Below, piece after piece: positions 15,257 through 52,067 of a stretch of DNA of 63,372 nt. Origin of the DNA: an uncultured Muribaculaceae bacterium (GTDB lineage Bacteria; Bacillota_I; Bacilli_A; RF39; UBA660); the NCBI GenBank assembly GCA_964370545.1, contig CAYJJQ010000004.1:1-63372 (forward strand), given 5' to 3'. A model generated the notes under the pieces. It was not told where the DNA came from, made no database searches, and saw nothing but the letters and a program-made list of their open reading frames with translations. Numbering within the stretch: the first letter of the stretch is position 1; each line of letters opens with the position of its first letter. The translations under genes were made by a program, and so were the position numbers.

Positions 15257-16630
15257 ATGAAACTAAATAAAAAGAGTATTTTAATTAGTTTAGGAGTAAT
15301 TATATTATTAGTAGGAGGCTACTTTCTTTTTTCAGTTTATTTAAATAATAATGAATTAGTAGTAAGTAGTGATAATAACGATAATGAAATCTTTGCAGTA
15401 TTCTTAGAAACAGGATATGATACAAATGTATATAACTACTCAGAAGTTACTGAGTGGCCAGCAGATTATATTTTTAATTCGGAAAAGTCATACTGTACAT
15501 ATGGTTCAGAGTTATCTTGGGATGGTACTGGAGTAGCAGTATCTTTATCAGGTTCAGATATATGTTATGTTTATTTTAAGGTTCCGCCAGATATTTATTT
15601 AGCAAGCATGACGCTTAATGGAAGTGCTACATCAAGTATTCCTACTAAAACTGACACTATGTTTGTAGGTGTAAGCTGCGCTAATGCTACAGGTAAATGG
15701 AATTATGAAGATTGGTATTTAGAAGTAGATAATGTAACTGATAAAGTAAACTGTAGTGTTGATTTTACGAATGTAACTAATCCTCCTACAGTAGCGCAGC
15801 ATATTATAGATCTTCATAGTGGTACTGATGGAACAGAAGGTATATATTATACAAACTCATCAGAATATAGATATACAGGAATGGCACCAAATAATTACAT
15901 ATGGTTTAATGATGAACTATGGAGAATAATAGGGGTATTTGATGGAGATTCTCATGGAAGAGATGGAGAGAATTTAGTAAAGATAATAAGTGAAGATACT
16001 TATTCATATGCTTTTGATACGGCAAATGATAACTCGTGGGCTGACTCAGGAGGAGGAGCAACGCTTAATACGCTTTATAATACATATTATTATAATAGTA
16101 CAAATGGAACAAGTTATGCAGGGTGTCGTGGACACTCAAGTTCATTAACAAAGTCATGTGATTTTACAAACTCAGGATTAGATGCAGAAGCAAGAGAAAT
16201 GGTGCAAAGTGTAACGTGGTATTTGGGAGGGCACTCTATATCAGGAGTAACGGCAAGCGTAATGTATGGGTACGAAAGAGGAAGTACTGTATCAAGCGGG
16301 ACATATACCAGCACAACAGCAAATATAGGATTAATGTACGCAAGTGATTATGGATATGCAGCACCACCTAGTTGTTTAACGACAAATTTAAGTAGCTATA
16401 ATACTGCTGCATGTGGAGGTAATAATTGGCTTTTAGAAAACCAATATGAATTTACACTAACGGCCACCTCCACTACCTCGAACTTTGTGTGGAGTGTCGG
16501 CTATCACGGCGGCGTGACCAACATCAACGTTTACATCGGCTATGCCTCTCGGCCAGTCTTGTATCTGAAATCTTCTTTGGTATATTTAGGAGGAACGGGA
16601 AGCGAAGCTGATCCGTTCATAGTAGGATAA
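15257..16630 (+). CDS. DGR target protein 1 (long-N-terminus form): membrane-anchored extracellular protein with C-terminal variable region
   Basis: N-terminal TM anchor. The C-terminal segment contains VR1, which matches the TR with adenine-specific differences. Paralogous to 19070, 20346 and 21744. Confidence 0.85.
   Translation: MKLNKKSILISLGVIILLVGGYFLFSVYLNNNELVVSSDNNDNEIFAVFLETGYDTNVYNYSEVTEWPADYIFNSEKSYCTYGSELSWDGTGVAVSLSGSDICYVYFKVPPDIYLASMTLNGSATSSIPTKTDTMFVGVSCANATGKWNYEDWYLEVDNVTDKVNCSVDFTNVTNPPTVAQHIIDLHSGTDGTEGIYYTNSSEYRYTGMAPNNYIWFNDELWRIIGVFDGDSHGRDGENLVKIISEDTYSYAFDTANDNSWADSGGGATLNTLYNTYYYNSTNGTSYAGCRGHSSSLTKSCDFTNSGLDAEAREMVQSVTWYLGGHSISGVTASVMYGYERGSTVSSGTYTSTTANIGLMYASDYGYAAPPSCLTTNLSSYNTAACGGNNWLLENQYEFTLTATSTTSNFVWSVGYHGGVTNINVYIGYASRPVLYLKSSLVYLGGTGSEADPFIVG
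16459..16549 (+). other. DGR variable repeat VR1
   Basis: Gap-free alignment to TR 18571..18661 (offset 2112). By hand count there are about 17 differences at TR adenines and 2 at non-adenines. 12 of 15 AAY template codons are changed. Confidence 0.85.
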
Positions 16631-16653
16631 AAAGGAGAAGATAGAATAAAACA

Positions 16654-16679
16654 AACCGCCGGCAGGCGGTTATATTTTT
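16654..16679 (+). terminator. GC-rich terminator hairpin after target gene 1
   Basis: aaccgcc-ggca-ggcggtt followed by atattttt; the identical stem-loop follows target gene 2. Confidence 0.75.
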
Positions 16680-16754
16680 AATAAAAATATAATCATGTGC
16701 TAATATTAAACAATTGAAAAGTTTACATTATATTTATAATTCAAATAAAAAAAG

Positions 16755-16783
16755 TTGACAATATGTAAATGTGCGGGTATGAT
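16755..16783 (+). promoter_or_regulatory. Candidate sigma-70-type promoter for the DGR accessory/RT operon
   Basis: TTGACA (16755), 17-nt spacer, TATGAT (16778). Confidence 0.45.
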
Positions 16784-16875
16784 TAATATAGAGGTGATGT
16801 ATAATAAAAACAAAATTATCTATAATTGGTAATCGTGGTTCTTTTTGTCATGTATATAATGAAGATGCGTATATT

Positions 16876-17169
16876 ATGAATAATTTATTTAATTATAAAA
16901 TAATTGAGGGTAATAAGGTTGGTTTTCCTAAAACTGCTTTGTTAAAAATTACACAAAAACTTGATGAACTTAAAATATCATATGAAATTACACAAATTGG
17001 AGAAGATGTAAAAAGAAAATTATACAAACAAAATAATTATGATAAATATTATGATGAGGCCAAAGAAAAAATATCATTTGAAAACAAATTAGAATTGGCA
17101 TTAAAAAAACTTGAATTTATGAAACAAAGCGATGTTCTTAAAGTAATTGAGTTTATAAATGAGTATTAG
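16876..17169 (+). CDS. Small DGR accessory protein resembling MutS mismatch-binding domain I (MSL-like)
   Basis: The pattern G.F..vYnEDA..mnnL....i......vGFPktal.kitqkLdelkisYEitQ parallels E. coli MutS [11 protein letters not shown]...[25 protein letters not shown]. The similarity continues upstream of the ATG. Confidence 0.45.
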   Translation: MNNLFNYKIIEGNKVGFPKTALLKITQKLDELKISYEITQIGEDVKRKLYKQNNYDKYYDEAKEKISFENKLELALKKLEFMKQSDVLKVIEFINEY

Positions 17170-17512
17170 TAGTAATAAGTTTTTAATTGCTGTTAAAATG
17201 AAAAAATATATAATTAGTTCTAAAACCTTAGTTAATAATATACCTAAAAGTGATTATGTATATCGCGATGAATATAGGGGAGTATTAGTCAGAACTTTGG
17301 AGAATATATATTATGCTAATAATGATATAACCAAAACAAAATATTTATCAATAATAAAAGGAAATTTAGAAATTATTGATTTTTATTTGGAATTATTTTT
17401 AAAATTCAAGTATATTTCTGAAAAAGAGTTTGAAAAACATGCAAAGCTTTTAAGTGAAATTTATAAAATGACAGTGTCCTGGTTAAAAAAATTGGAAGAT
17501 GAAAAAAGTTAA
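17159..17512 (+). CDS. avd: Avd-like accessory variability determinant (four-helix-bundle protein)
   Basis: 117 aa, helical. The pattern ...IPKSDY.YRDEY....VRTLENIYYAN...L.IIDFYLELF.KFKYISEKEF is typical of Avd / S23-IVS four-helix-bundle proteins. Overlaps the RT start. Confidence 0.7.
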   Translation: MSISSNKFLIAVKMKKYIISSKTLVNNIPKSDYVYRDEYRGVLVRTLENIYYANNDITKTKYLSIIKGNLEIIDFYLELFLKFKYISEKEFEKHAKLLSEIYKMTVSWLKKLEDEKS

Positions 17513-18560
17513 TATATTTGATATAAATGAGATTTATGAATCTCTAAGTAAAAATATTAAGAATAAAAATTCATTATACTTATTTGAAAAGAATAAAATG
17601 ATATATTTAAATCATATTAAAGAAACTTTGAATAGTAGTTATGATGGAGGGAAATATAATATTTTTCTTTTAAAATATCCTAAAAAAAGAATAATAATGA
17701 GTCAATCAATAATAGATAAAATAATAAATCACTATGTTACAAAACATATACTGGAAGAAAAACTTAAAAAGTACTTGGATAAAAGAAATGTTGCGACAAG
17801 AAAAAACATGGGAACAAGTTATGGTATAAAATTATTTATGCAGTACATTAACAAATTAAAGTTTGAATATGATGATATATATGTACTAAAATTAGACATT
17901 AAAAATTATTTTCCAAGTATTGATCACTGTGAGTTAAAAAAATTACTTGTTGATAAACTAGATTCTTTTGAATATGGAATTATTGAAAATATAATTGATA
18001 GCACTAATCATTCTTATGTTAATGATAAAATTGTAAAAATAAATGAAAAAAACAACTTAAATTTACCATTATATGATAATGGTAAGGGTTTGCCTATTGG
18101 AAATATGACCTCCCAATTTTTAGCAATTTTTTATTTACATGAATTTCATCATTATTTAATTCATAAACAAAAACTTAAGTATTTTGTTAATTATATGGAT
18201 GATTATGTAATTATTTGTCCAGATAAAGACTATTTATCAAGATGTAAAAAGGAAATCATTAATTTTTTAAGCACTTATAAATTAGAAATTAATGAAAATA
18301 AAACACGTATCAATCACATTTCAAACGGAGTTAACTTTTTAGGATATAAGTTTATAATGAAGGATAACAATAGGTTAATAGTCAAATTAAGTAGTAAGTC
18401 AAGACAAAATATAAAATATAATTTAAAAAAAAGAAAATATGAATATAAAACAAATGAAATTGATATTAATAGTTATTTTAGCACTACAATGACATATAAA
18501 TATGGATTCAAATTTAGTAAAAGTAATAAAGTGAAAAAAATAATAAAAAAATATGGGTAA
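17499..18560 (+). CDS. DGR-type reverse transcriptase
   Basis: RT motifs KLDIKNYFPSIDH and YMDDYVII (YxDD), plus the DGR-diagnostic LPIGNMTSQ (I/LGxxxSQ) motif. Confidence 0.9.
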   Translation: MKKVNIFDINEIYESLSKNIKNKNSLYLFEKNKMIYLNHIKETLNSSYDGGKYNIFLLKYPKKRIIMSQSIIDKIINHYVTKHILEEKLKKYLDKRNVATRKNMGTSYGIKLFMQYINKLKFEYDDIYVLKLDIKNYFPSIDHCELKKLLVDKLDSFEYGIIENIIDSTNHSYVNDKIVKINEKNNLNLPLYDNGKGLPIGNMTSQFLAIFYLHEFHHYLIHKQKLKYFVNYMDDYVIICPDKDYLSRCKKEIINFLSTYKLEINENKTRINHISNGVNFLGYKFIMKDNNRLIVKLSSKSRQNIKYNLKKRKYEYKTNEIDINSYFSTTMTYKYGFKFSKSNKVKKIIKKYG

Positions 18561-18570
18561 TTTTTTATGA

Positions 18571-18661
18571 AAAAGCCAACTCCACTAACTCGAACAATGT
18601 GTGGAATGTGAACTATAACGGCAACGTGAACAACAACAACGCTAACAACGGCAATGCCTCT
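18571..18661 (+). other. DGR template repeat (TR)
   Basis: Non-coding, 10 nt after the RT stop. 15 of 29 codon-equivalents are AAC/AAT. GC-rich relative to its surroundings. Matches VR1 and VR2. Confidence 0.85.
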
Positions 18662-18800
18662 TTTTCTTTAGCTTATTGATTTTGTTTAATTAAGGGTAAG
18701 CCTTTAATTACAAGAGTTAATAAACATAAATTATCCCTGGGTTTTCCTAAATGATAATTGCAAATAAGAAAGGATTAGTCTATTTTCTAGGGGTGATGTA

Positions 18801-19067
18801 ATGAAAAATAAATATGATTTCTTAAAAACTATATATAAGAATAAATTAGTAGTTTTTAAGAAAAAGAATAATATAAAATCATTTGGTATAGATCAAATGA
18901 TTTTATATTATTTAAAGATAGAAACTAAAGAAGATTTAAAAAAAGTTAATTTTGACTTTATATTATTTGATAATTTTGATATAATTGATATGAAAATAGA
19001 AGGTAGTAATAAATATAATAATTATGTATTGATAGTATCATTATTAAAAAAATTGAAAGGAATGTAA
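18801..19067 (+). CDS. Hypothetical small protein (88 aa) between TR and target gene 2
   Basis: ORF with a GGGGTGA RBS, ending 2 nt before target gene 2. Only a weak resemblance to the N-terminal part of the 16876 ORF. Confidence 0.45.
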   Translation: MKNKYDFLKTIYKNKLVVFKKKNNIKSFGIDQMILYYLKIETKEDLKKVNFDFILFDNFDIIDMKIEGSNKYNNYVLIVSLLKKLKGM

Positions 19068-19069
19068 TT

Positions 19070-20212
19070 ATGAAAAAGAAAATTATGTATGTGTGTTTAT
19101 TTTTTGTGATTGGAACTATAGGTTTTATCTATTATTTTAAAAATAGTAATAATGAACAAAATGAGTTTTCTTCTTCTGTAAAATATGCTATCAATGTAGA
19201 TGGAGTGAGTCAAAATACTTTTCCTTCAAGTGGTAATTATGATGTTAGTGTAAATTGTGATAATGCAGTAGGAGAGTGGGATTATAAACTTGCTGGGGTA
19301 AAATTCACTAGTATTTCTGGTCCGACTGAATGTGCAGTTACTTTTACAAGTACAGCAAGTAAAACTACTATGTCAAATTATATTATAAATACTTTATATG
19401 CAGGTACTGAAGGTAGAAATGGTATATATTATACAAACTCATCAGAGTATAGATATACAGGATTAAATCCAAATAATTATATATGGTTTAATGATGAACT
19501 ATGGAGAATAATAGGAGTATTTGATAAAGATTCCCATGGAAGAGATGGAGAAAATCTAGTAAAAATAATAAGCGAAGATAGCTATACATATGCATTTGAT
19601 ACAGCAGATGATAACTCGTGGGCTGACTCTGGAGGAGGAGCAACACTTAATATTCTATATAACACATACTATTATAATAGTATAAATGGAACAAGTTATG
19701 CAGGGTGTAGGGGATATTCAAGTACAATAACAAAGTCATGTGATTTTAAAAACTCAGGATTAGATGTAGAAGCAAGAGAAATGGTGCAAAGTGTAACGTG
19801 GTATTTGGGAGCACATTCTACAACAGGAGTAACAGCAAGCGTAATGTATGGATATGAAAGAGGAAGTGTTGTATCAAGTGGAACATATACCAGCACAACA
19901 GCAAATATAGGATTAATGTATGCAAGTGATTATGGATATGCAGCACCAGCAAGCTGTTTGACAACAAATTTAAGTGGTTATAATACTGCTGCATGTGGAG
20001 GTAATAATTGGCTTTTAGAAAACCAATATGAATTTACACTAACAGCCAGCTCCACTAACTTGAACCGTGTGGGGATTGTGAGCTATAACGGCAACGTGAA
20101 CAACAACAACGTTTTCTACGGCTATGCCTCTCGGCCAGCCTTGTATCTGAAATCTTCTTCGGTATACTTAGGAGGAACGGGAAGCGAAGCTGATCCGTTC
20201 ATAGTAGGATAA
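19070..20212 (+). CDS. DGR target protein 2 (short-N-terminus form): membrane-anchored protein with C-terminal variable region
   Basis: N-terminal TM anchor. The C-terminal half is about 90% identical to target 1. Contains VR2. Confidence 0.85.
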   Translation: MKKKIMYVCLFFVIGTIGFIYYFKNSNNEQNEFSSSVKYAINVDGVSQNTFPSSGNYDVSVNCDNAVGEWDYKLAGVKFTSISGPTECAVTFTSTASKTTMSNYIINTLYAGTEGRNGIYYTNSSEYRYTGLNPNNYIWFNDELWRIIGVFDKDSHGRDGENLVKIISEDSYTYAFDTADDNSWADSGGGATLNILYNTYYYNSINGTSYAGCRGYSSTITKSCDFKNSGLDVEAREMVQSVTWYLGAHSTTGVTASVMYGYERGSVVSSGTYTSTTANIGLMYASDYGYAAPASCLTTNLSGYNTAACGGNNWLLENQYEFTLTASSTNLNRVGIVSYNGNVNNNNVFYGYASRPALYLKSSSVYLGGTGSEADPFIVG

Positions 20213-20261
20213 AAAGAGAAAGAAAGAACCAAATAAACCGCCGGCAGGCGGTTTTTATTTT
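19421..20261 (+). repeat. Direct repeat copy 2 (about 0.84 kb)
   Basis: See copy 1 (15839..16679). Confidence 0.8.
20041..20131 (+). other. DGR variable repeat VR2
   Basis: Gap-free alignment to the TR (offset 1470). About 10 differences at TR adenines and 3 at non-adenines. 7 of 15 AAY codons are changed, and a central block is identical to the TR. Confidence 0.85.
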
Positions 20262-20262
20262 T
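20236..20262 (+). terminator. GC-rich terminator hairpin after target gene 2
   Basis: aaccgcc-ggca-ggcggtt plus a T run. Confidence 0.75.
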
Positions 20263-20345
20263 GGTTAAAAATCATTATAACTTAAATAAGTATTATTGTG
20301 GGTTATCTTTATTTATGATATACTTTTATAGTAAGGATATAGGGT

Positions 20346-21725
20346 ATGGCACTAACAAAAAGAAATATTGTGTTGTGTATTATATTAATTTTGATTGTAA
20401 CACTTAGTTACACTCTTTTTAGTGTAGCAAACTCTAAAAATATATTAAAAACAGATGCAACTAATGAAAATGAACTTTTTTCAGTATTTTTGGAATCAAC
20501 AGAAGGTTCTAATGTCTATACTTATACAGAAGTTACAGAGTGGCCAACAGATTACGTCTTTAATGCAACAAAATCATACTGTACATATGGTTCAGAGTTA
20601 TCTTGGGACGGAGTCGGAGTTTTTGTATCACTAACAGGTTCTGATGAGTGTTTTGTTTATTTTAAATATCCACCAGATATTTACTTATCAAGTTTAACTT
20701 TAGATGGTGTGCCAGTTTCTTCTATACCTGCTAAGTCAGATAATTTAAGAGTAGATACAACATGTACTAATGCTGATGTTAAATGGGACTATAATGAATG
20801 GTCATATAGTATTGAAAACGTAACAAATAAAGTGAGTTGTTCTATTAGTTTTGTTACAATCAATAATACACCTAATCTTTCAGATTATATTATTGATTTA
20901 CATAATGGTGTTAATGGAACTGATAGTATATATTTTACAAATAATTCAGAATATAGATATACAGGATTAAATCCTAATAATTTTATTTGGTTTAATAATG
21001 AATTATGGCGTATTATAGGTGTGTTTGATGATAATTCTCATGGGCAAACTGGAGAAAACTTAGTTAAGATAGTCAACGAAAAATCTTTTACATATGTACT
21101 TGATACAGGAAATGATAATTCATGGGCCGATTCAGGGGGAGGAGCAACTTTAAAAACTCTTTATAATACATACTATTATAACAGTACAAATGGTACATCT
21201 TATACAGGTTGTTCTGCTGATAGAACAACTGCAAAAAGAAGTTGTGATTTTACATATTACGGTTTAGGTCCAAAAGAAAGAGAATTAACTGCTGAAACTA
21301 CTTGGTATTTAGGAGCTATCAATACTAGTGGGAGTGTTACTGCATTAGGTGCTTATAATATGGAACGCAGCAGCACTGTTACCAGCGGTACATATTCTAC
21401 TACAAATGCGTATATTGGACTAGCATATTTAAGCGATATGGGTTACGCGTCAGAATACTCATGTTGGACTAGCAGTGTTGATCTATTTGGCTATCAACAT
21501 AATAATTATTGCGCCAATAATTGGTTTTTAGAAAAAAATGATAAAACAATAACTTTTTCTGGCGAGTATGGCACTACAACAGAAATAGTTGGTTATGATA
21601 GTTCGATGGATTATTATTCTGCAAATAATGGTTGGTATAACACATACCCAACCTTGCACTTAACTGCTGATGCTAAATACATTGATGGTAATGGTACTTT
21701 AATAGATCCATATATTATTAATTAA
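20346..21725 (+). CDS. Non-diversified paralog of DGR target 1 (long-N-terminus form)
   Basis: Shares the N-terminal domain with 15257 (ELFSVFLE..NVYTYTEVTEWP.DY.FN..KSYCTYGSELSWDG) and the central YRYTG..PNN.IWFN.ELWRIIGVFD core. Its C-terminus has no TR match. Confidence 0.8.
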   Translation: MALTKRNIVLCIILILIVTLSYTLFSVANSKNILKTDATNENELFSVFLESTEGSNVYTYTEVTEWPTDYVFNATKSYCTYGSELSWDGVGVFVSLTGSDECFVYFKYPPDIYLSSLTLDGVPVSSIPAKSDNLRVDTTCTNADVKWDYNEWSYSIENVTNKVSCSISFVTINNTPNLSDYIIDLHNGVNGTDSIYFTNNSEYRYTGLNPNNFIWFNNELWRIIGVFDDNSHGQTGENLVKIVNEKSFTYVLDTGNDNSWADSGGGATLKTLYNTYYYNSTNGTSYTGCSADRTTAKRSCDFTYYGLGPKERELTAETTWYLGAINTSGSVTALGAYNMERSSTVTSGTYSTTNAYIGLAYLSDMGYASEYSCWTSSVDLFGYQHNNYCANNWFLEKNDKTITFSGEYGTTTEIVGYDSSMDYYSANNGWYNTYPTLHLTADAKYIDGNGTLIDPYIIN

Positions 21726-21743
21726 AAAGAAAGGAAAACAAAT

Positions 21744-22880
21744 ATGAAAAAAAAATATACAATTTCTATATGTAGTGCAATAATTCTTATATTTGTTTTT
21801 ATAGTTACATATATAAATAATAGCAGTGATTCAGAAGAATTAATAAATTATGCAATATTAGTTGATGGCATAAGTCAAAATAGTTTTCCTCTTTCTGGAA
21901 ACTATGATGTAACAGTTACTTGTGATAATGCAACAGCATCGTGGGATCATAAAATTAGAGGAATAAAATTCGCTGAAATAAATGGCCCATCTGAATGTAA
22001 TGTGAACTTTACTACCAAAACATCAGCATCTACGACTATGTCAAATTATGTTATTAATACATTATATGCAAATACGGCAGGTAGAAATGGAATTTATAGA
22101 ACAAATAATGCTGAATATAGATATACAGGATTAGCTCCAAATAACTATATTTACTATAATGATGAATTGTGGAGAATAATAGGAGTTTTTAATTCAAATT
22201 CTCATGGAAATGCTAATCAAAATTTAGTTAAAATCATTAATGAAAAATATTTTTTTAGCAGCTATGGTTCTTTTTTAAACTCAGACGGTTCATCTACACC
22301 TCGCAATGCTTGGGAACTGACTGATGGCGAGGAGGCCTATATAAATATGTACCTAAATACATTATATTATAATTCAAGAGATTGGAATCATGCGAATGCT
22401 TTTTTTCAAGTAAACGGATTAGATTTAGAGGCTAGAAACATGATTCAATCATCAACATGGTATCTAGGAGGAAGAACTTCTGCAAGTTATAACGCCTCAG
22501 AATTTTACAGTTATGAAAGAAGCTCTAATGTATCATCTATTTCTAAGGTTAGTTCTATAGATAATATAGGATTAATGTATGTAAGTGACTTTGCATATGC
22601 TGCTCAATATTCATGCTGGAATTCAGGATATGATTTAAGTGCATATAGTAATACTACGTGTGCTGCTGCTAATTGGTTATCATCATCGTTTCAAGAAATG
22701 ATGATTACTCCTGATATATCTGATACAACACAAATCTTTTATATTAACGAAATTGGTTCAATAGGAGCAGCAAATGCTACTATTGGATGGACTTATAGAC
22801 CTACATTATATTTAAAAGAATCAGTATATTATATTTCGGGAACAGGTACTCAAACTGATCCATTTATAATAGGGTATTAA
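21744..22880 (+). CDS. Non-diversified paralog of DGR target 2 (short-N-terminus form)
   Basis: Shares the N-terminal domain with 19070 (YAI.VDG.SQN.FP.SGNYDV.V.CDNA...WD.K..G.KF..I.GP.EC.V.FT). The C-terminus ends ...GWTYRPTLYLKES but is AT-rich with no TR match. Confidence 0.8.
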   Translation: MKKKYTISICSAIILIFVFIVTYINNSSDSEELINYAILVDGISQNSFPLSGNYDVTVTCDNATASWDHKIRGIKFAEINGPSECNVNFTTKTSASTTMSNYVINTLYANTAGRNGIYRTNNAEYRYTGLAPNNYIYYNDELWRIIGVFNSNSHGNANQNLVKIINEKYFFSSYGSFLNSDGSSTPRNAWELTDGEEAYINMYLNTLYYNSRDWNHANAFFQVNGLDLEARNMIQSSTWYLGGRTSASYNASEFYSYERSSNVSSISKVSSIDNIGLMYVSDFAYAAQYSCWNSGYDLSAYSNTTCAAANWLSSSFQEMMITPDISDTTQIFYINEIGSIGAANATIGWTYRPTLYLKESVYYISGTGTQTDPFIIGY

Positions 22881-25239: not shown

Positions 25240-25316
25240 GGACCTCTAGCTCAGTTGGTTAGAGCATCCGGCTCATAACCGGGCGGTCGTAGGTTCAAGT
25301 CCTACGAGGTCCACCA
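25240..25316 (+). tRNA. tRNA with CAU anticodon (elongator Met or lysidine-dependent Ile2)
   Basis: Cloverleaf with acceptor ggacctc/gaggtcc, anticodon loop cuCAUaa, T-arm gtagg-ttcaagt-cctac and an encoded CCA. Met and Ile2 cannot be told apart by eye. Confidence 0.9.
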
Positions 25317-25319
25317 TAT

Positions 25320-25404
25320 GCAGGTATGGCGAAATTGGTAGACGCGCTAGACTTAGGATCTAGTGGATTACTCCATGGGGGTTCAAGTCCCTCTACCTGC
25401 ACCA
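25320..25404 (+). tRNA. tRNA-Leu (UAG anticodon), long variable arm
   Basis: Acceptor gcaggta/tacctgc, anticodon loop cuUAGga, long extra arm and an encoded CCA. Confidence 0.9.
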
Positions 25405-29199: not shown

Positions 29200-30177
29200 T
29201 TAACTTTTAGTAATTAAAAACTTTATTAACTCTTCTGGATTCTTATCTTCATAGACAATATCATATATAATATTTATAAGAGGTACTTTTATCTTATTGT
29301 CTTTAAGTAAGTTTTTAAATGTTTCTAAAGCATAATAACCTTCAACAGTATTATCTTCTAAAAAATTATTACTAGTTTTTTTGTCTTTATGTTTACCAAT
29401 GGTGTATCCAAAACTATAATTTCTACTTTTTGTAGAAGTACAGGTTAATATTAAATCTCCGATACCTGCAAAAGATAATATAGTTTTTTTACTTCCTCCC
29501 AAATAATAGATAGTATTTTTTATATCATGAACACTTTCGTTAATTAAAAAAGCAGTAGTACTATTTGAGTAACCAAGTCCATTAATGATTCCAACAGCTA
29601 TTGCAATAACGTTCTTAATAGACCCACATATTTGTGTTCCAATAATATCTTTGTTATCTCTTAATTTAAGAGAATCATTTTCTAATGCTTTTTTAACAAC
29701 TTCAACATTTGATTTTGATCTAGATGCAAGAGCTAAAGCAACTGGTTCATTATTTATTATGTCTATTGCAAAAGTAGGACCAGATAAAACACTAACGTTT
29801 TTAGTTTTTAAATGATTAGAAAGGATATTTGATAAGAAATCTTTAGATTTATCATCAAGACCTTTAGTAGCTATACATATAGGTATCTCTTTTTTATAAA
29901 AAGGTTGCATGTTTAGTATAGTGTTTTTAAAATAATTAGATGCAACACCAATAATAATTAAATTAGTATTTTCTAAAGATTCTTCTAAACTTGTAGTTAT
30001 AGAAATGTTACTATCAAATTTATAATCTATGATAGATTTTAAACTCTTAGTATTATTATATTCTTCTTTTAATTTACTATCATGAGTCCACATAATGATT
30101 TTATTACTATTTTTTTTAGATAGGGCATGAGCAAGAGCTAAGCTGTATACTCCAGTACCAATAACTGTTATTTTCAT
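29200..30177 (-). CDS. gpsA: NAD(P)H-dependent glycerol-3-phosphate dehydrogenase
   Basis: N-terminal ITVIGTGVYSLALA Rossmann motif and conserved NVIAIAVGI...GLGYS.N; typical size. Confidence 0.85.
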   Translation of the reverse strand: MKITVIGTGVYSLALAHALSKKNSNKIIMWTHDSKLKEEYNNTKSLKSIIDYKFDSNISITTSLEESLENTNLIIIGVASNYFKNTILNMQPFYKKEIPICIATKGLDDKSKDFLSNILSNHLKTKNVSVLSGPTFAIDIINNEPVALALASRSKSNVEVVKKALENDSLKLRDNKDIIGTQICGSIKNVIAIAVGIINGLGYSNSTTAFLINESVHDIKNTIYYLGGSKKTILSFAGIGDLILTCTSTKSRNYSFGYTIGKHKDKKTSNNFLEDNTVEGYYALETFKNLLKDNKIKVPLINIIYDIVYEDKNPEELIKFLITKS

Positions 30178-31376
30178 TTTTTACCATCCTTCATATCTTT
30201 ATGTAATTTATTTAAACTATTTTCTACATTATTATTTTTAGGTACATAATATTTCCTATTAATTAATTTTTCGGGCATATAATTTTGTTTTACATAACTA
30301 TTAGGATAATCATGTGGATATAAGTATGTAGTTGTACTAATTTTAATATTCTCTGGTATATCACCAGTAAAACCTTTTTTAACATCATTGATTGCATTAG
30401 CAATTGCTAAATAAGCACTATTACTTTTAGGAGATATAGCCATTTCAAGTACTATTTGTCCTAAAATAATTCTGGCTTCTGGAAGACCTATTCTTTCACA
30501 GTGATTAATAGCACTATCAAGCCTTGCTCCTATACCTGGATTAGCAAGTCCTATATCTTCATAGGCTATTACTCCAAGTCTTCTATAAATAGAATCTAAG
30601 TCCTCCAGTTCAATTAATCTAGCAAGATAATGAACTGCGGCATCGGGATCCGAGCCCCTAATAGATTTTTGAAGAGCACTTAGTAAATCATAATGTCCAG
30701 TTTCATTGGCATCTCCAATAAGCGCTGGCTTACTATTTATTGTTTTAATAATTTCTATATTTATTACTCCGTCTTTGGAAGCATAGTAAGCTACCTCAAT
30801 TAAATTAAGAGCGAATCTTAAATCACCATTTGATAAATTAGCGATATGTTCTAAAGATTTATTATCAATTTTAAAATTATCATATACATTTTTTACTTTT
30901 TCTAACCCTTTAATAATATCTTCTTTTTTTAAAGGTTTAATTTCAAATATTTGACATCTGCTTCTTATAGCTGGATTAATTTTGAAATAAGGATTAGATG
31001 TAGTAAGGCCAATTAATATTATTAATCCGCTTTCAATGTAGGGTAGAAGCAAATCTTGTTTGTCTTTATTCATTCTATGAATTTCATCGATAACTAAAAT
31101 AAGTTCACCGCTCATTCGCGCTTCGTTTATTGCATAATCAAAATCATCTTTTTTATGAGTTGTTGCATTAAGAAACTTATAGGGCTTTTTTGACTCTTTT
31201 ACAAGAGCATAAGCAATGCTTGTTTTCCCAGTTCCTGGTTTACCAAAAAAGATGGTGGAAAATAGTTTTTTATTTTTAATTAAATTTGTTAATATTTTGT
31301 TTTCACCAATTAAGTGATCCTGACCTAGAATGTCTTTTAATTTTTCAGGTCTTAATTTATCTGCTAATATTTCCAT
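30174..31376 (-). CDS. rarA: Replication-associated recombination protein A (AAA+ ATPase)
   Basis: LADKLRP..L.DI.GQDHL, Walker A GKPGTGKTS, Walker B VIDEIHR and the MgsA C-terminal domain (HYDLLSALQKSIRGSDPDAA). Confidence 0.9.
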   Translation of the reverse strand: MEILADKLRPEKLKDILGQDHLIGENKILTNLIKNKKLFSTIFFGKPGTGKTSIAYALVKESKKPYKFLNATTHKKDDFDYAINEARMSGELILVIDEIHRMNKDKQDLLLPYIESGLIILIGLTTSNPYFKINPAIRSRCQIFEIKPLKKEDIIKGLEKVKNVYDNFKIDNKSLEHIANLSNGDLRFALNLIEVAYYASKDGVINIEIIKTINSKPALIGDANETGHYDLLSALQKSIRGSDPDAAVHYLARLIELEDLDSIYRRLGVIAYEDIGLANPGIGARLDSAINHCERIGLPEARIILGQIVLEMAISPKSNSAYLAIANAINDVKKGFTGDIPENIKISTTTYLYPHDYPNSYVKQNYMPEKLINRKYYVPKNNNVENSLNKLHKDMKDGKK

Positions 31377-31455: not shown

Positions 31456-31485
31456 TTGACTAATAGTAAATTAAAATGTTATAGT
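31456..31485 (+). promoter_or_regulatory. Promoter of small-peptide mRNA, copy A
   Basis: TTGACT, 18-nt spacer, TGtTATAGT (extended -10). Predicted TSS near 31492. Confidence 0.55.
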
Positions 31486-31491
31486 TAATTT

Positions 31492-31725
31492 GGAAGACTT
31501 AGATTAAGTGCTTGCCTTCAACATCAGGGGGACCTCGAGGGGAGGCTGATATTATGAAAAGAAATGATATATTAATATTGTTTTTAATTATAATAATTAT
31601 ATTACTAATAGCCTCTTTATACAAAGCTATATAATATAAAAACAGCACTTAATTCGTATTTGAATTAAGTGCTAACACAAAAGTGGCAAGTGCTTAGCTT
31701 GAATTCTAAGTACTTCCTTTTTATT
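31492..31725 (+). other. Candidate type I toxin mRNA, copy A (structured, about 230 nt)
   Basis: 5' ggaag-acttag-ttaagtgcttgcc pairs with 3' ggcaagtgcttag...ctaagt-cttcc. gccttc can pair with the SD ggaggc. Ends in a U tract. Paralogous to 51672..51913 (-). Confidence 0.55.
31554..31634 (+). CDS. 26-aa hydrophobic peptide MKRNDILILFLIIIIILLIASLYKAI (candidate type I toxin)
   Basis: GGAGG SD 8 nt upstream. Charged N-terminus plus a single TM helix. The length and sequence are conserved in copy B. Confidence 0.6.
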   Translation: MKRNDILILFLIIIIILLIASLYKAI

Positions 31726-31744
31726 TTATGTAAGTATTTCTTAC
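31636..31744 (-). ncRNA. Candidate antisense sRNA (antitoxin), copy A
   Basis: Minus-strand promoter TTGACA-17-TGaTAAGAT (31751..31779). Minus-strand terminator: 12-bp hairpin 31644..31673 followed by GUUUUUAU. Overlaps the 3' ~90 nt of the peptide mRNA. Confidence 0.5.
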
Positions 31745-31859
31745 AAATTCATCTTATCAAAAACTTTACTTTTTGTCAAATTCAACTTTTGGATTTACTT
31801 ATGTATCATTAACTATACCAAACTAAAAAAATGATGTATAATTATACTATGAGGGCATT

Positions 31860-32744
31860 ATGAAAAAAGAAATATTTAACTTAGATAAAAATATAGAAGA
31901 TTACTTATCATATTTAAAGTATGAAAAAAAATTGTCAAGTAATACTTATGAATCATATAAAGATAATCTAAAAAAGTTTAATATGAATTTTCCAAATCAA
32001 AATATACTTAAATTAAAAGTAGATGATATTAAAGATTATTTATATGGTATTCAGCTAAGTGCTAAAACTAAAGCGCATTATATAACTGTGATTAATTCAT
32101 TTTATAATTTTTGTATAACAGAAGGTAAAATAGATAAATCGCCTGTAGCAGGAATTAAAATGCCTAAAATAGAAAAGAAATTACCTAACTATTTAAGTAT
32201 TGATGAAACAAATAAATTGCTTGATATAAAATTAATTAAACCCATAGATTATCGTAATAAAGCAATGCTTGAAGTATTATATGGAACAGGTATTAGAATT
32301 ACAGAATTGTGTACTCTTACATTATCTCAAATAGATCCAGTATCTTGCAGTATTAAAATAATGGGGAAGGGAAAAAAAGAAAGAATAGTTCCGCTTAATA
32401 GTTTTGCGCTAAATTATTTAAATGTGTATATTAAAGAATATAGATCATATATTCTTAAAACCAAGAGTAGTGAATATGTATTTATAAATAATTTAGGAGG
32501 GCCTATATCTAGGCAAGGATTTTTTAAAATTATAAAACAGTTATGTCAAAAAAGTGGTATAGACAAGGATGTATCACCACATACTTTAAGACATTCTTTT
32601 GCTACCCATCTTTTAAATAATGGAGCTGATTTAAGAGTAATTCAAGAAATACTTGGTCATGAAAATTTAGTAACTACTGAAATATATGCTCACTTACAAA
32701 ACAAAAAAATAGCAGATGATTATTCTAATCATCCGCATGCATAG
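31860..32744 (+). CDS. xerD: Tyrosine recombinase, XerD-like
   Basis: SAM-like N-terminal domain, R...HTLRHSFATHLL..GADLRVIQEILGH......IYAH catalytic motifs, 294 aa. Confidence 0.8.
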   Translation: MKKEIFNLDKNIEDYLSYLKYEKKLSSNTYESYKDNLKKFNMNFPNQNILKLKVDDIKDYLYGIQLSAKTKAHYITVINSFYNFCITEGKIDKSPVAGIKMPKIEKKLPNYLSIDETNKLLDIKLIKPIDYRNKAMLEVLYGTGIRITELCTLTLSQIDPVSCSIKIMGKGKKERIVPLNSFALNYLNVYIKEYRSYILKTKSSEYVFINNLGGPISRQGFFKIIKQLCQKSGIDKDVSPHTLRHSFATHLLNNGADLRVIQEILGHENLVTTEIYAHLQNKKIADDYSNHPHA

Positions 32745-32758
32745 TTAATTCTTTTTAA

Positions 32759-32854
32759 TTAACAATTTCTCGCAGTCGAGTTATTTTTACAAGAACTACT
32801 ATTTGAATTATTATTTTTCATTTGATTTCTTGCTTTTGATTTAGCTTTATTCAT
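32759..32854 (-). CDS. Possible 31-aa basic, Asn/Ser-rich peptide MNKAKSKARNQMKNNNSNSSSCKNNSTARNC
   Basis: Strong GAGGAGGT RBS 7 nt upstream of the ATG, in an otherwise empty intergenic gap. Below the ORF-track length cutoff. Confidence 0.35.
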   Translation of the reverse strand: MNKAKSKARNQMKNNNSNSSSCKNNSTARNC

Positions 32855-51614: not shown

Positions 51615-51643
51615 TTGAAATTAACAATTTCTTATGTTAAGAT
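51615..51643 (+). promoter_or_regulatory. Promoter of candidate antisense sRNA, copy B
   Basis: TTGAAA, 17-nt spacer, TGtTAAGAT. The same -10 and downstream GAAT.TGTAAG are found at the copy A antisense promoter. Confidence 0.55.
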
Positions 51644-51649
51644 GAATAT

Positions 51650-51766
51650 GTAAGTAAGAAATTACATACAATAAAAAAAGGAAGCGTTTAAAGAGGGTTT
51701 TAAGCGCCTACCTTTCGTTTTGGGTGGCACCTAATTCAGATCTATTAGAATTAAGTGCCTTTTTTT
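51650..51766 (+). ncRNA. Candidate antisense sRNA (antitoxin), copy B
   Basis: Starts behind the 51615 promoter. Ends at hairpin ggcacctaattc...gaattaagtgcc (51726..51759) plus 7 U. Overlaps the 3' ~90 nt of the minus-strand peptide mRNA. Confidence 0.5.
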
Positions 51767-51913
51767 ATGCTAGCTTATAAATAGAGGCCAGCGATAAAAT
51801 AAGTAATATGATTAAAAATAATATTAAAATATCTTTTCTATTCATAATATTTAAGCCTCCCTTCGAGGTCCCCCTGAAGTGGTGAAGGCAGACACTTAAC
51901 TTTAAAAACTTCC
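51672..51913 (-). other. Candidate type I toxin mRNA, copy B (structured, about 240 nt)
   Basis: 5' ggaag...ttaagtgtctgcc pairs with 3' ggtaggcgcttaa...cttcc, with compensatory changes relative to copy A. TATAAT -10 at 51922..51927 (-). U tract at the 3' end. Confidence 0.55.
51765..51845 (-). CDS. 26-aa hydrophobic peptide MNRKDILILFLIILLILSLASIYKLA (candidate type I toxin)
   Basis: GGAGG SD 10 nt upstream. Same length as copy A, and about 70% identical to it by eye. Confidence 0.6.
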   Translation of the reverse strand: MNRKDILILFLIILLILSLASIYKLA

Positions 51914-52067
51914 AGTTAGTTATTATAAATGGTTATTACTAAAAATACTGTCGAATTATATTTAAAAATTAATTATTTATAAACTGTATATAATTATGTA
52001 ATATTATAGCAAATGAATTGACAGAACCTTTATAATTTTGATATTCTAAAATTAGAAAGGATGTAGA

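Follow-up and report, generated by a model that had tools for sequence, protein, structure and literature searches.

A candidate toxin-antitoxin module between rarA and xerD

The window analyzed here, a stretch of 63,372 nt from contig CAYJJQ010000004.1 of an uncultured Muribaculaceae bacterium (GTDB lineage Bacilli_A; RF39; UBA660), was found to carry a candidate module that is probably a functional type I toxin-antitoxin system of the bsrG/SR4 design, in which a small hydrophobic peptide would be encoded on a structured mRNA and restrained by a convergent antisense RNA. The module is present in two copies, each of which appears to be an autonomous unit of ~320 bp. For the first (copy A), rarA (30174-31376, minus strand) and xerD (31860-32744, plus strand) are separated by 483 nt that house all of its elements, including the following:

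31456-31485, plus: sigma-A-type promoter of the toxin mRNA (sense), TTGACT-18-TGtTATAGT, with an extended -10 TG and 10 of the 12 hexamer bases matched
31456-31461, plus: sense -35 TTGACT, with an 18-nt spacer to the extended -10 TGtTATAGT at 31477-31485
31492-31722, plus: predicted toxin mRNA, ~231 nt between its predicted ends, starting with GGAAG at 31492
31492-31518, plus: 5' arm of a long-range helix (equivalent of P1 in bsrG)
31540-31545, plus: Shine-Dalgarno (SD) sequence GGGAGG, 8 nt 5' of the ATG
31554-31634, plus: open reading frame (ORF) of 26 codons, MKRNDILILFLIIIIILLIASLYKAI, putative toxin
31643-31674, both strands: post-stop hairpin, 13 pairs, -16.6 kcal/mol, with a T-run on the minus strand only
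31688-31715, plus: sense terminator hairpin, -13.2 kcal/mol, followed by CCTTTTTATT
31685-31722, plus: 3' arm of the long-range helix, formed by the same bases as the local sense terminator hairpin and its U-run
31751-31779, minus: antisense promoter TTGACA-17-TGaTAAGAT, 10 of 12 matches plus TG, pointing into the locus
31637-31744, minus: predicted antisense RNA, ~108 nt, its ends placed from promoter and terminator

An earlier note on this DNA, made from the letters alone, had described most of this layout, and the present analysis recovered (i) its sense promoter TTGACT-18-TGtTATAGT with a start near 31492; (ii) its SD ahead of the hydrophobic ORF, here read as GGGAGG; (iii) the pairing of the mRNA 5' end with the 3' end just before a U tract, which is seen in the predicted folds of both copies; (iv) the antisense promoter at 31751-31779; (v) the hairpin after the stop codon that would terminate only the antisense strand, with 13 bp instead of 12; and (vi) an antisense RNA of ~110 nt over the last ~90 nt of the mRNA, computed here as ~108 and ~86 nt. 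The anti-SD element gccttc does exist and is predicted to pair with the SD, but its placement at 31513-31518 was one base off, the correct position being 31514-31519.

When the locus was scanned against shuffled sequence, two terminator-like sites were found where shuffles gave 0.1 ± 0.4. Promoter-like hexamers were not enriched in this DNA of 26.8% GC (six, compared with 4.8 ± 2.1 in shuffles), and so the promoters draw weight only from their placement and from their conservation in the second copy. With regard to placement, the 5'-3' helix of the copy A mRNA begins exactly at the start predicted from the sense promoter.

A second, diverged copy of the module

The earlier note had implied two copies in this stretch, and the other (copy B) was located by repeat search and a minus-strand reading at ~51615-51990 on the minus strand, flanked by the 3' end of the gene for pyruvate phosphate dikinase (PPDK) and a lipoprotein gene. 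No third copy was detected in the 63-kb window by nucleotide profile. The predicted elements of copy B are:

51674-51913, minus: predicted toxin mRNA, ~240 nt
51765-51845, minus: 26-codon ORF, MNRKDILILFLIILLILSLASIYKLA
51856-51861, minus: SD GGGAGG
51922-51927, minus: sense -10 TATAAT, at the position homologous to the copy A -10 and without a good -35
51983-51955, minus: alternative full sense promoter
51615-51643, plus: antisense promoter TTGAAA-17-TGtTAAGAT, 9 of 12 matches and the TG, homologous in position to the antisense promoter of copy A
51650-51766, plus: predicted antisense RNA, ~117 nt
~51726-51759, plus: antisense terminator hairpin, 12 bp with a U7 run, on the antisense strand only

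An alignment of the two copies spans ~320 nt with 78% identity and runs from immediately 5' of the sense -10 as far as the -10 of the antisense promoter. Conservation peaks in an untranslated 24-nt core, TCAGGGGGACCTCGA[G/A]GGGAGGCT (37/38 identical), compared with only 73% identity for the ORF.

The peptide consists of a short charged head (MKRND or MNRKD), a 17-residue core of Ile, Leu, and Phe, and Tyr-Lys near the C-terminus; the four-residue C-terminal end holds a single Lys. Of the 81 ORF positions, 22 differ between the copies, distributed 7/3/12 by codon position, with synonymous differences in six codons and five Ile/Leu replacements, two of which required two-nucleotide changes. Start, stop, and length of the ORF are the same in both copies and the ORF is free of indels; the frame 5' of the ATG is not kept, and both untranslated regions (UTRs) carry 2- and 4-nt indels. 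In 20,000 simulations in which 22 random substitutions were placed on the copy A ORF, the frame stayed open in 21.7%, and in 0.33% it stayed open with a core as hydrophobic as that of copy B. These patterns indicate that the 26-codon ORF evolves as a coding sequence. A scan of both strands of the window for an SD followed at 4-11 nt by a start codon, 15-60 codons, and a hydrophobic 15-mer returned three ORFs: those of copies A and B and one in-gene TTG ORF. Type I toxins are typically hydrophobic peptides of 20-60 residues on mRNAs of 150-400 nt (PMC8594479), and the module places 26 residues on ~231-240 nt.

Three other readings of the locus were rejected. A TTG-extended 40-residue toxin frame (31512-31634, plus strand) is not coding, as its upstream part is shifted in copy B by 2 + 2 nt indels; a minus-strand 49-residue ORF at 31499-31648 is not conserved in copy B; and a leader peptide or attenuator of xerD was dismissed since no gene of like orientation follows copy B. 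The 40-residue frame of copy A could nonetheless be called by an annotation pipeline, thereby mis-sizing the peptide; it had no match in a word-indexed protein search, and no gene caller in the searched collections had called it.

Predicted folding of the mRNA and sequestration of its SD

The predicted sense RNAs are far more stable than expected from their composition. The 231-nt RNA of copy A has a minimum free energy (MFE) of -72.7 kcal/mol compared with -40.7 ± 4.1 kcal/mol for dinucleotide shuffles (z = -7.7), and that of copy B, which is closed between its ends in the same way, an MFE of -78.5 kcal/mol (z = -6.7); none of 200 shuffles was as stable as the native RNA for either copy. In the fold of copy A, nt 1-27 of the mRNA pair with 31685-31717, directly before the U-run. 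The consensus fold has 62 pairs in seven helices, and all 124 of the 124 cells across the two copies form standard pairs, with four compensatory changes, eight compatible single changes, and no broken pair; when partners were slid by 1-3 columns as a control, only 36-51% paired. Helices 1-3 make up the long helix that unites the first 27 nt with the ~33 nt preceding the U-run; their 23 pairs are standard in both copies and include three of the compensatory and five of the compatible single changes. Helix 7, the post-stop hairpin, holds one compensatory change. We regard this covariation as supportive of the consensus fold, not conclusive. Since the 3' arm and the local sense terminator hairpin share their bases, the long helix and the hairpin are mutually exclusive.

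Instead of the single anti-SD of the earlier note, three alternative segments that can pair with the SD region were identified, all invariant between the copies:

31514-31519, plus: anti-SD 1, GCCUUC, pairing with GGGAGGC in the nascent, 3'-trimmed, and antisense-bound states
31533-31536, plus: anti-SD 2, CCUC, inside the 24-nt core, pairing in the centroid structure and in 5'-trimmed forms
31611-31616, plus: anti-SD 3, GCCUCU, in the ORF at conserved Ala-Ser codons, pairing through helix 5

Helix 5 comprises seven pairs with the SD region and is conserved in both copies. The extreme conservation of the core may be explained by these overlapping, mutually exclusive pairings. SD accessibility, expressed as the predicted probability of being unpaired in thermodynamic fold models, differed between RNA states:

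Nascent transcripts of any length: SD unpaired at most 0.03, held by GCCUUC
Full-length mRNA closed by the long helix: SD unpaired 0.19-0.40, with ~4 bp left on the SD
mRNA with its 3' region trimmed, or blocked by bound antisense RNA: SD unpaired 0.14 in copy A and 0.02 in copy B, with at least 6 bp on the SD
5'-trimmed mRNA: SD still paired via the other two anti-SD segments

For copy A, blocking the 3' region is predicted to take SD accessibility from 0.30 down to 0.14; for copy B, the predicted drop is from 0.40 to 0.02.

A predicted convergent antisense unit

Both copies retain the antisense promoter, including its -10 block TTCATCTTA[T/A]CA, and a terminator specific to the antisense strand. 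The predicted antisense RNAs (~108-117 nt) are convergent with the mRNA and overlap its last ~86-90 nt; the overlap stops 2-8 nt past the stop codon, with the ORF lying wholly outside it. The post-stop hairpin lies 10 nt 3' of the stop codon, with a U-run only on the antisense strand, and likely acts as the antisense terminator on the minus strand and as the first-contact loop on the plus strand of copy A. Cofolding of cognate sense and antisense RNAs gave a gain of -73.4 kcal/mol for copy A and -91.0 kcal/mol for copy B, compared with 0.0 for non-cognate pairs, and all cognate pairing was confined to the 3' overlap. The hairpin loops also differ between the copies, which appear too diverged to cross-regulate. 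An additional pairing of the antisense RNA with the 5' arm via the near-palindrome AAGUGCUU was dismissed, being present in copy A only.

These predictions can be combined into a working model. In the nascent mRNA the SD would be captured at once by the upstream GCCUUC. Emergence of the 3' arm would then allow the long helix to form and pull the 5' arm away, leaving ~4 bp on the SD, such that the closed full-length mRNA would have the loosest SD and be the form most likely to be translated. The terminator loop of the antisense RNA would first contact the complementary post-stop loop of the mRNA and then zip along the 3' arm, displacing the 5' arm, which once freed would re-close a helix of at least 6 bp on the SD; RNase III would probably also cut the long RNA duplex. 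If the antisense RNA were lost, the peptide would be made, insert into the membrane, and arrest growth.

Search for relatives and genomic setting

Family searches returned little. At gathering threshold, Rfam identified only two tRNAs in the window, and only noise on the locus at E up to 10. Neither peptide had a Pfam hit at E up to 10, PADLOC gave no match, and the only NCBIfam match was to NF033853 ("small membrane protein"; E = 0.48, 10.1 bits against a cut-off of 33), so that no known non-toxin small membrane protein family was matched above its curated threshold. These results agree with the statement of the earlier note that the peptide resembles no known type I toxin. With respect to BsrG, no homology was detected with Pfam, NCBIfam, or Rfam, whose content of models for the Bacillus subtilis toxins and antitoxins was unchecked. 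Both peptides weakly matched phrog_15860, a 38-position phage profile of no assigned function (E = 0.063 and 0.087), over their N-terminal 20-23 residues; the matches are not significant and the peptides not independent, and they are the sole hint of any relative.

Searches of larger collections were likewise negative. The exact 19-nt UTR core gave only seven chance hits in a genome set of 185,579 species, all in high-GC metagenome-assembled genomes (MAGs); a 17-nt core gave four hits in IMG/VR, on inspection chance matches in high-GC contigs; and a 24-nt core gave none in JGI metagenomes. A locus search by peptide profile yielded 420 pattern hits in IMG/VR and 600 in metagenomes, none of which was confirmed, and patterns of the ORF 5' end and of the post-stop hairpin gave no hit in IMG/VR. 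Neither blastn of the mRNA nor tblastn of the peptides detected a match among plasmids and phages, the latter with a low-complexity filter that may mask the peptides. A two-row profile found nothing in an exhaustive HMMER search of 1.8 billion representative proteins, an nhmmer profile together with the SD/small hydrophobic ORF descriptor found nothing in ~146 kb of relatives' DNA, and a look-up of the XerD of the window returned no exact record. Because the collection scans need exact matches and short peptides are rarely called, this absence of homologues is weaker than it looks.

The spacer between xerD and rarA is only 67-102 nt in six relatives, and the window keeps recognizable versions of both spacer ends with the module between them. 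Similarly, the distance from the PPDK gene to the next gene is 55-107 nt in two relatives. At both intergenic sites the module was therefore inserted in a lineage-specific manner. Neither copy is adjoined by phage genes, genes of mobile elements, or terminal repeats. Three observations place the contig in an uncultured low-GC member of the Firmicutes/Bacilli: the nearest PPDK homologues (77-80% identical) are from MAGs named "Bacilli bacterium" or "Firmicutes bacterium," the neighborhoods of these homologues carry sporulation genes, and the window itself encodes a penicillin-binding protein of the SpoVD/PBP2X type. The nearest RarA is only 73-74% identical.

Alternative explanations

Several observations weigh against a type I toxin-antitoxin assignment. 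The peptide has no positively charged C-terminal tail, in which most Gram-positive type I toxins end (PMC8309996, PMC7699646). In copy B, the sense promoter is weak or ambiguous. The covariation comes from two paralogues and is thin; of 500 shuffle-control runs, 28 equaled it, and with two rows no better outcome is attainable. The differences in SD accessibility are modest and derive from thermodynamic models of AU-rich RNA. Lastly, the AUG is ~0-1% unpaired in every predicted state, within AU-rich helices, such that in none of the states are SD and AUG well exposed.

It was also considered, and appears unlikely, that the product is a small membrane protein without toxicity, regulating or stabilizing a membrane complex as other bacterial proteins of fewer than 30 residues do, with a structured mRNA and an antisense RNA in cis to tune its expression. 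The coding signal and the antisense unit would fit it equally well, the basic C-terminal tail common to type I toxins (PMC8309996) is missing, and the weak match to NF033853 is to a family of this name. That match is, however, far under threshold. The module also has no partner gene or conserved neighbor; it occupies two unrelated intergenic sites and is missing from both orthologous sites in relatives, as selfish or accessory modules behave; and an SD occluded in three ways, an mRNA closed end to end, and an antisense RNA of its own would be an oddly heavy brake on a harmless product.

A structured non-coding RNA pair (small RNA plus antisense) or cis-regulatory element with an incidental ORF is quite improbable. 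The very strong RNA structure and the location of the best-conserved stretch in untranslated sequence (37/38 compared with 73% for the ORF) are in its favor. Yet an incidental ORF would not account for (i) the 7/3/12 bias toward third codon positions; (ii) the identical start, stop, and length, with indels in the UTRs only; (iii) a hydrophobic core kept via multi-nucleotide Ile/Leu exchanges, which 0.3% of simulations equaled; or (iv) a strong GGGAGG at the right spacing in both copies. Moreover, no Rfam family was matched and no downstream gene is consistent, with copy A directed toward xerD and copy B converging on the 3' end of the PPDK gene.

Least probable is an inert, unexpressed remnant of a decayed mobile element or prophage that was duplicated, for example a holin-like gene fragment: lineage-specific insertion and the weak phrog_15860 matches of both peptides would suit it, but the preservation of all pairs, both ORFs, the antisense promoter, and both terminators despite 22% divergence argues for purifying selection and not decay, no mobile-element or phage genes or terminal repeats adjoin the copies, and nothing was matched in the phage, plasmid, and viral collections.

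Returning to the type I toxin-antitoxin module, a more specific proposal can be put forward tentatively. The two copies may possibly represent an orphan type I family, so far found in one uncultured Bacilli lineage, in which the antitoxin acts mainly by remote strand displacement, the toxin is a minimal, N-terminally charged peptide of 26 residues (among the shortest of Gram-positive type I toxins), and the module is mobile into intergenic promoter regions.

Significance of the module

Type I toxins share almost no sequence similarity and are missed by homology-based annotation (PMC8309996), and the present module was unseen by every gene caller and family library tried. If the assignment is true, the module would add a new family of toxins and antitoxins, from Bacilli that are uncultured, spore-forming, and low in GC, and a second independent case of the dual mechanism of SR4, in which a remote antisense RNA closes the SD; such a second case would suggest a convergent or ancient design and not a peculiarity of B. 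subtilis. It would also provide a naturally orthogonal pair of compact (~320 bp) RNA-controlled kill switches, a kind of element that is being repurposed for post-transcriptional devices (PMC12721322). The field's understanding of type I systems would stay unchanged even so, and the interest lies mainly in an orphan family and a possible second instance of remote SD closing.

Other features of the window and of related contigs

Immediately past xerD on its 3' side, and in the opposite orientation, lies a tiny Asn/Ser/Lys-rich, Cys-containing ORF of 31 residues (MNKAKSKARNQMKNNNSNSSSCKNNSTARNC; 32759-32854, minus strand). ORFs of 34-44 residues are called at the same place in relatives (contigs L009 4907-5020, L010 4911-5015, L017 8930-9049, L018 7169-7297, and L019 6092-6226); the two that were translated, from L009 and L010, are similar in composition. 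There was no NCBIfam hit. This ORF is predicted to be a conserved small protein. Two adjacent tRNA genes are located at 25240-25313 and 25320-25401 (plus strand). In a relative's contig (L021 651-3254), an ABC transporter with a C39 peptidase is followed by a 51-residue peptide with an apparent double-glycine leader (MDKLTNSNLYKINGG...), a locus that resembles those for bacteriocin export and is unrelated to the module.

The window also carries a diversity-generating retroelement (15257-22880). Its reverse transcriptase (RT) ORF (17499-18560) matches a group-II-intron-type RT of NCBIfam at E = 6e-25, below the family cut-off, and is preceded by a 117-residue ORF (17159-17512) and followed on its 3' side by an adenine-rich template repeat (18571-18661). 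Variable repeats are found at the 3' ends of two ORFs, at 16459-16549 (ORF 15257-16630) and 20041-20131 (ORF 19070-20212), with 17/19 and 10/13 of the mismatches at template adenines. Two further paralogous genes, at 20346-21725 and 21744-22880, share the upstream repeats.

Comparison with known type I systems

The earlier note had likened the architecture to that of TxpA/RatA-, BsrG/SR4-, and Fst-type systems. The bsrG/SR4 features were all found in the prediction, whereas Fst fits poorly because the module has neither a bidirectional terminator common to the two RNAs nor an interaction through direct repeats at the 5' ends.

Among systems of Gram-negative hosts, which differ in this from the host of the module, hok/Sok (plasmid R1) and aapA1/IsoA1 (Helicobacter pylori) resemble it in the 5'-3' pairing of the full-length mRNA and in having several anti-SD segments in succession, able to act while the mRNA is being transcribed (PMC3834814, PMC6733600). 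Their antisense RNAs pair with the 5' or translation-initiation region and their mRNAs are activated by 3' trimming; in the module the predicted antisense RNA pairs with the 3' end, and the models have the SD more tightly occluded after 3' trimming. Like IbsC of ibs/Sib (E. coli), the peptide is very short, nearly pure Ile/Leu, and devoid of a basic C-terminal tail, a resemblance that is compositional only. IbsC is among the exceptions without C-terminal positive charges (PMC8309996). Sib differs in spanning the whole ibs ORF (PMC8594479), the host and RNA layout also differ, and Pfam gave no Ibs hit in hidden Markov model (HMM) searches.

With regard to Gram-positive families, antisense RNAs that partly overlap on the 3' side are typical, and an ORF outside the overlap is described only for Fst/RNAII and SprA1/SprA1as, where the functional interaction lies elsewhere (PMC8594479). 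The module shares with fst/RNAII (pAD1 par, Enterococcus) and sprA1/SprA1AS (Staphylococcus aureus) an ORF outside the 3' overlap (PMC8594479), a small hydrophobic toxin, and a sequestered SD. In contrast to the module, the inhibitory interaction of these two systems is placed at the mRNA 5' region outside the overlap (PMC8594479, PMC3834814); fst/RNAII interacts through 5' direct repeats and complementary 3' ends, while the module has separate sense and antisense terminator hairpins. No 5' complementarity between sense and antisense RNAs was found that is kept in both copies, and no Fst-family HMM was hit in Pfam or NCBIfam, such that the module falls outside the fst/RNAII group. The module also resembles txpA/RatA, bsrE/SR5, bsrH/as-bsrH, and yonT/SR6 of B. 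subtilis and the CD-RCd modules, which are convergent, have the antisense RNA on the 3' side, and reside in Gram-positive hosts (PMC8594479), with a consensus SD 7-8 nt before the ATG as in the module; unlike in the module, their overlap usually enters the ORF (PMC8594479). The toxins of Clostridioides difficile (CD-RCd) have 34-47 or, in the wider range given, 34-53 residues, a hydrophobic N-terminus, and a Lys-rich C-terminal tail, and lie in prophages or next to CRISPR loci (PMC7699646), whereas the module peptide has the opposite charge layout and no phage genes nearby, which places it apart from this group.

For bsrG/SR4, the experimental work of Jahn and Brantl (PMC3834814) describes (i) pairing of nt 1-35 of the bsrG mRNA with nt 232-262 in the long helix P1; (ii) an SD in a 4-bp helix that SR4 binding lengthens to 8 bp, inhibiting translation; (iii) a stop codon in a stem-loop whose loop L3 first contacts the terminator loop of SR4; and (iv) pairing of the two RNAs at their 3' ends, with SR4 also promoting RNase III-dependent decay. 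The predictions for the module parallel these points: the genes are convergent with 3'-overlapping RNAs, the mRNA is closed by a long helix from the 5' end to near the 3' end, the SD of the free mRNA lies in a helix of ~4 bp, a stop-codon stem-loop faces the antitoxin terminator loop, and distant 3' binding of the antitoxin may, by thermodynamic prediction, lengthen the SD helix. A small single-helix membrane peptide and a Firmicutes/Bacilli host are further shared features. The systems differ in that peptide and RNAs have no sequence similarity, the RNAs, at ~230 and ~110 nt, are shorter than the 296 and 183 nt of bsrG and SR4, the sense terminator hairpin doubles as the 3' arm of the long helix where bsrG has a separate SL4, three redundant anti-SD segments are present, and the module is chromosomal and intergenic, without prophage context. 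The peptide of 26 residues is also shorter than BsrG (~38 residues) and carries its charges at the N-terminus, not in a C-terminal Lys tail. On this comparison, bsrG/SR4 specifically appears to be the closest match of the module.

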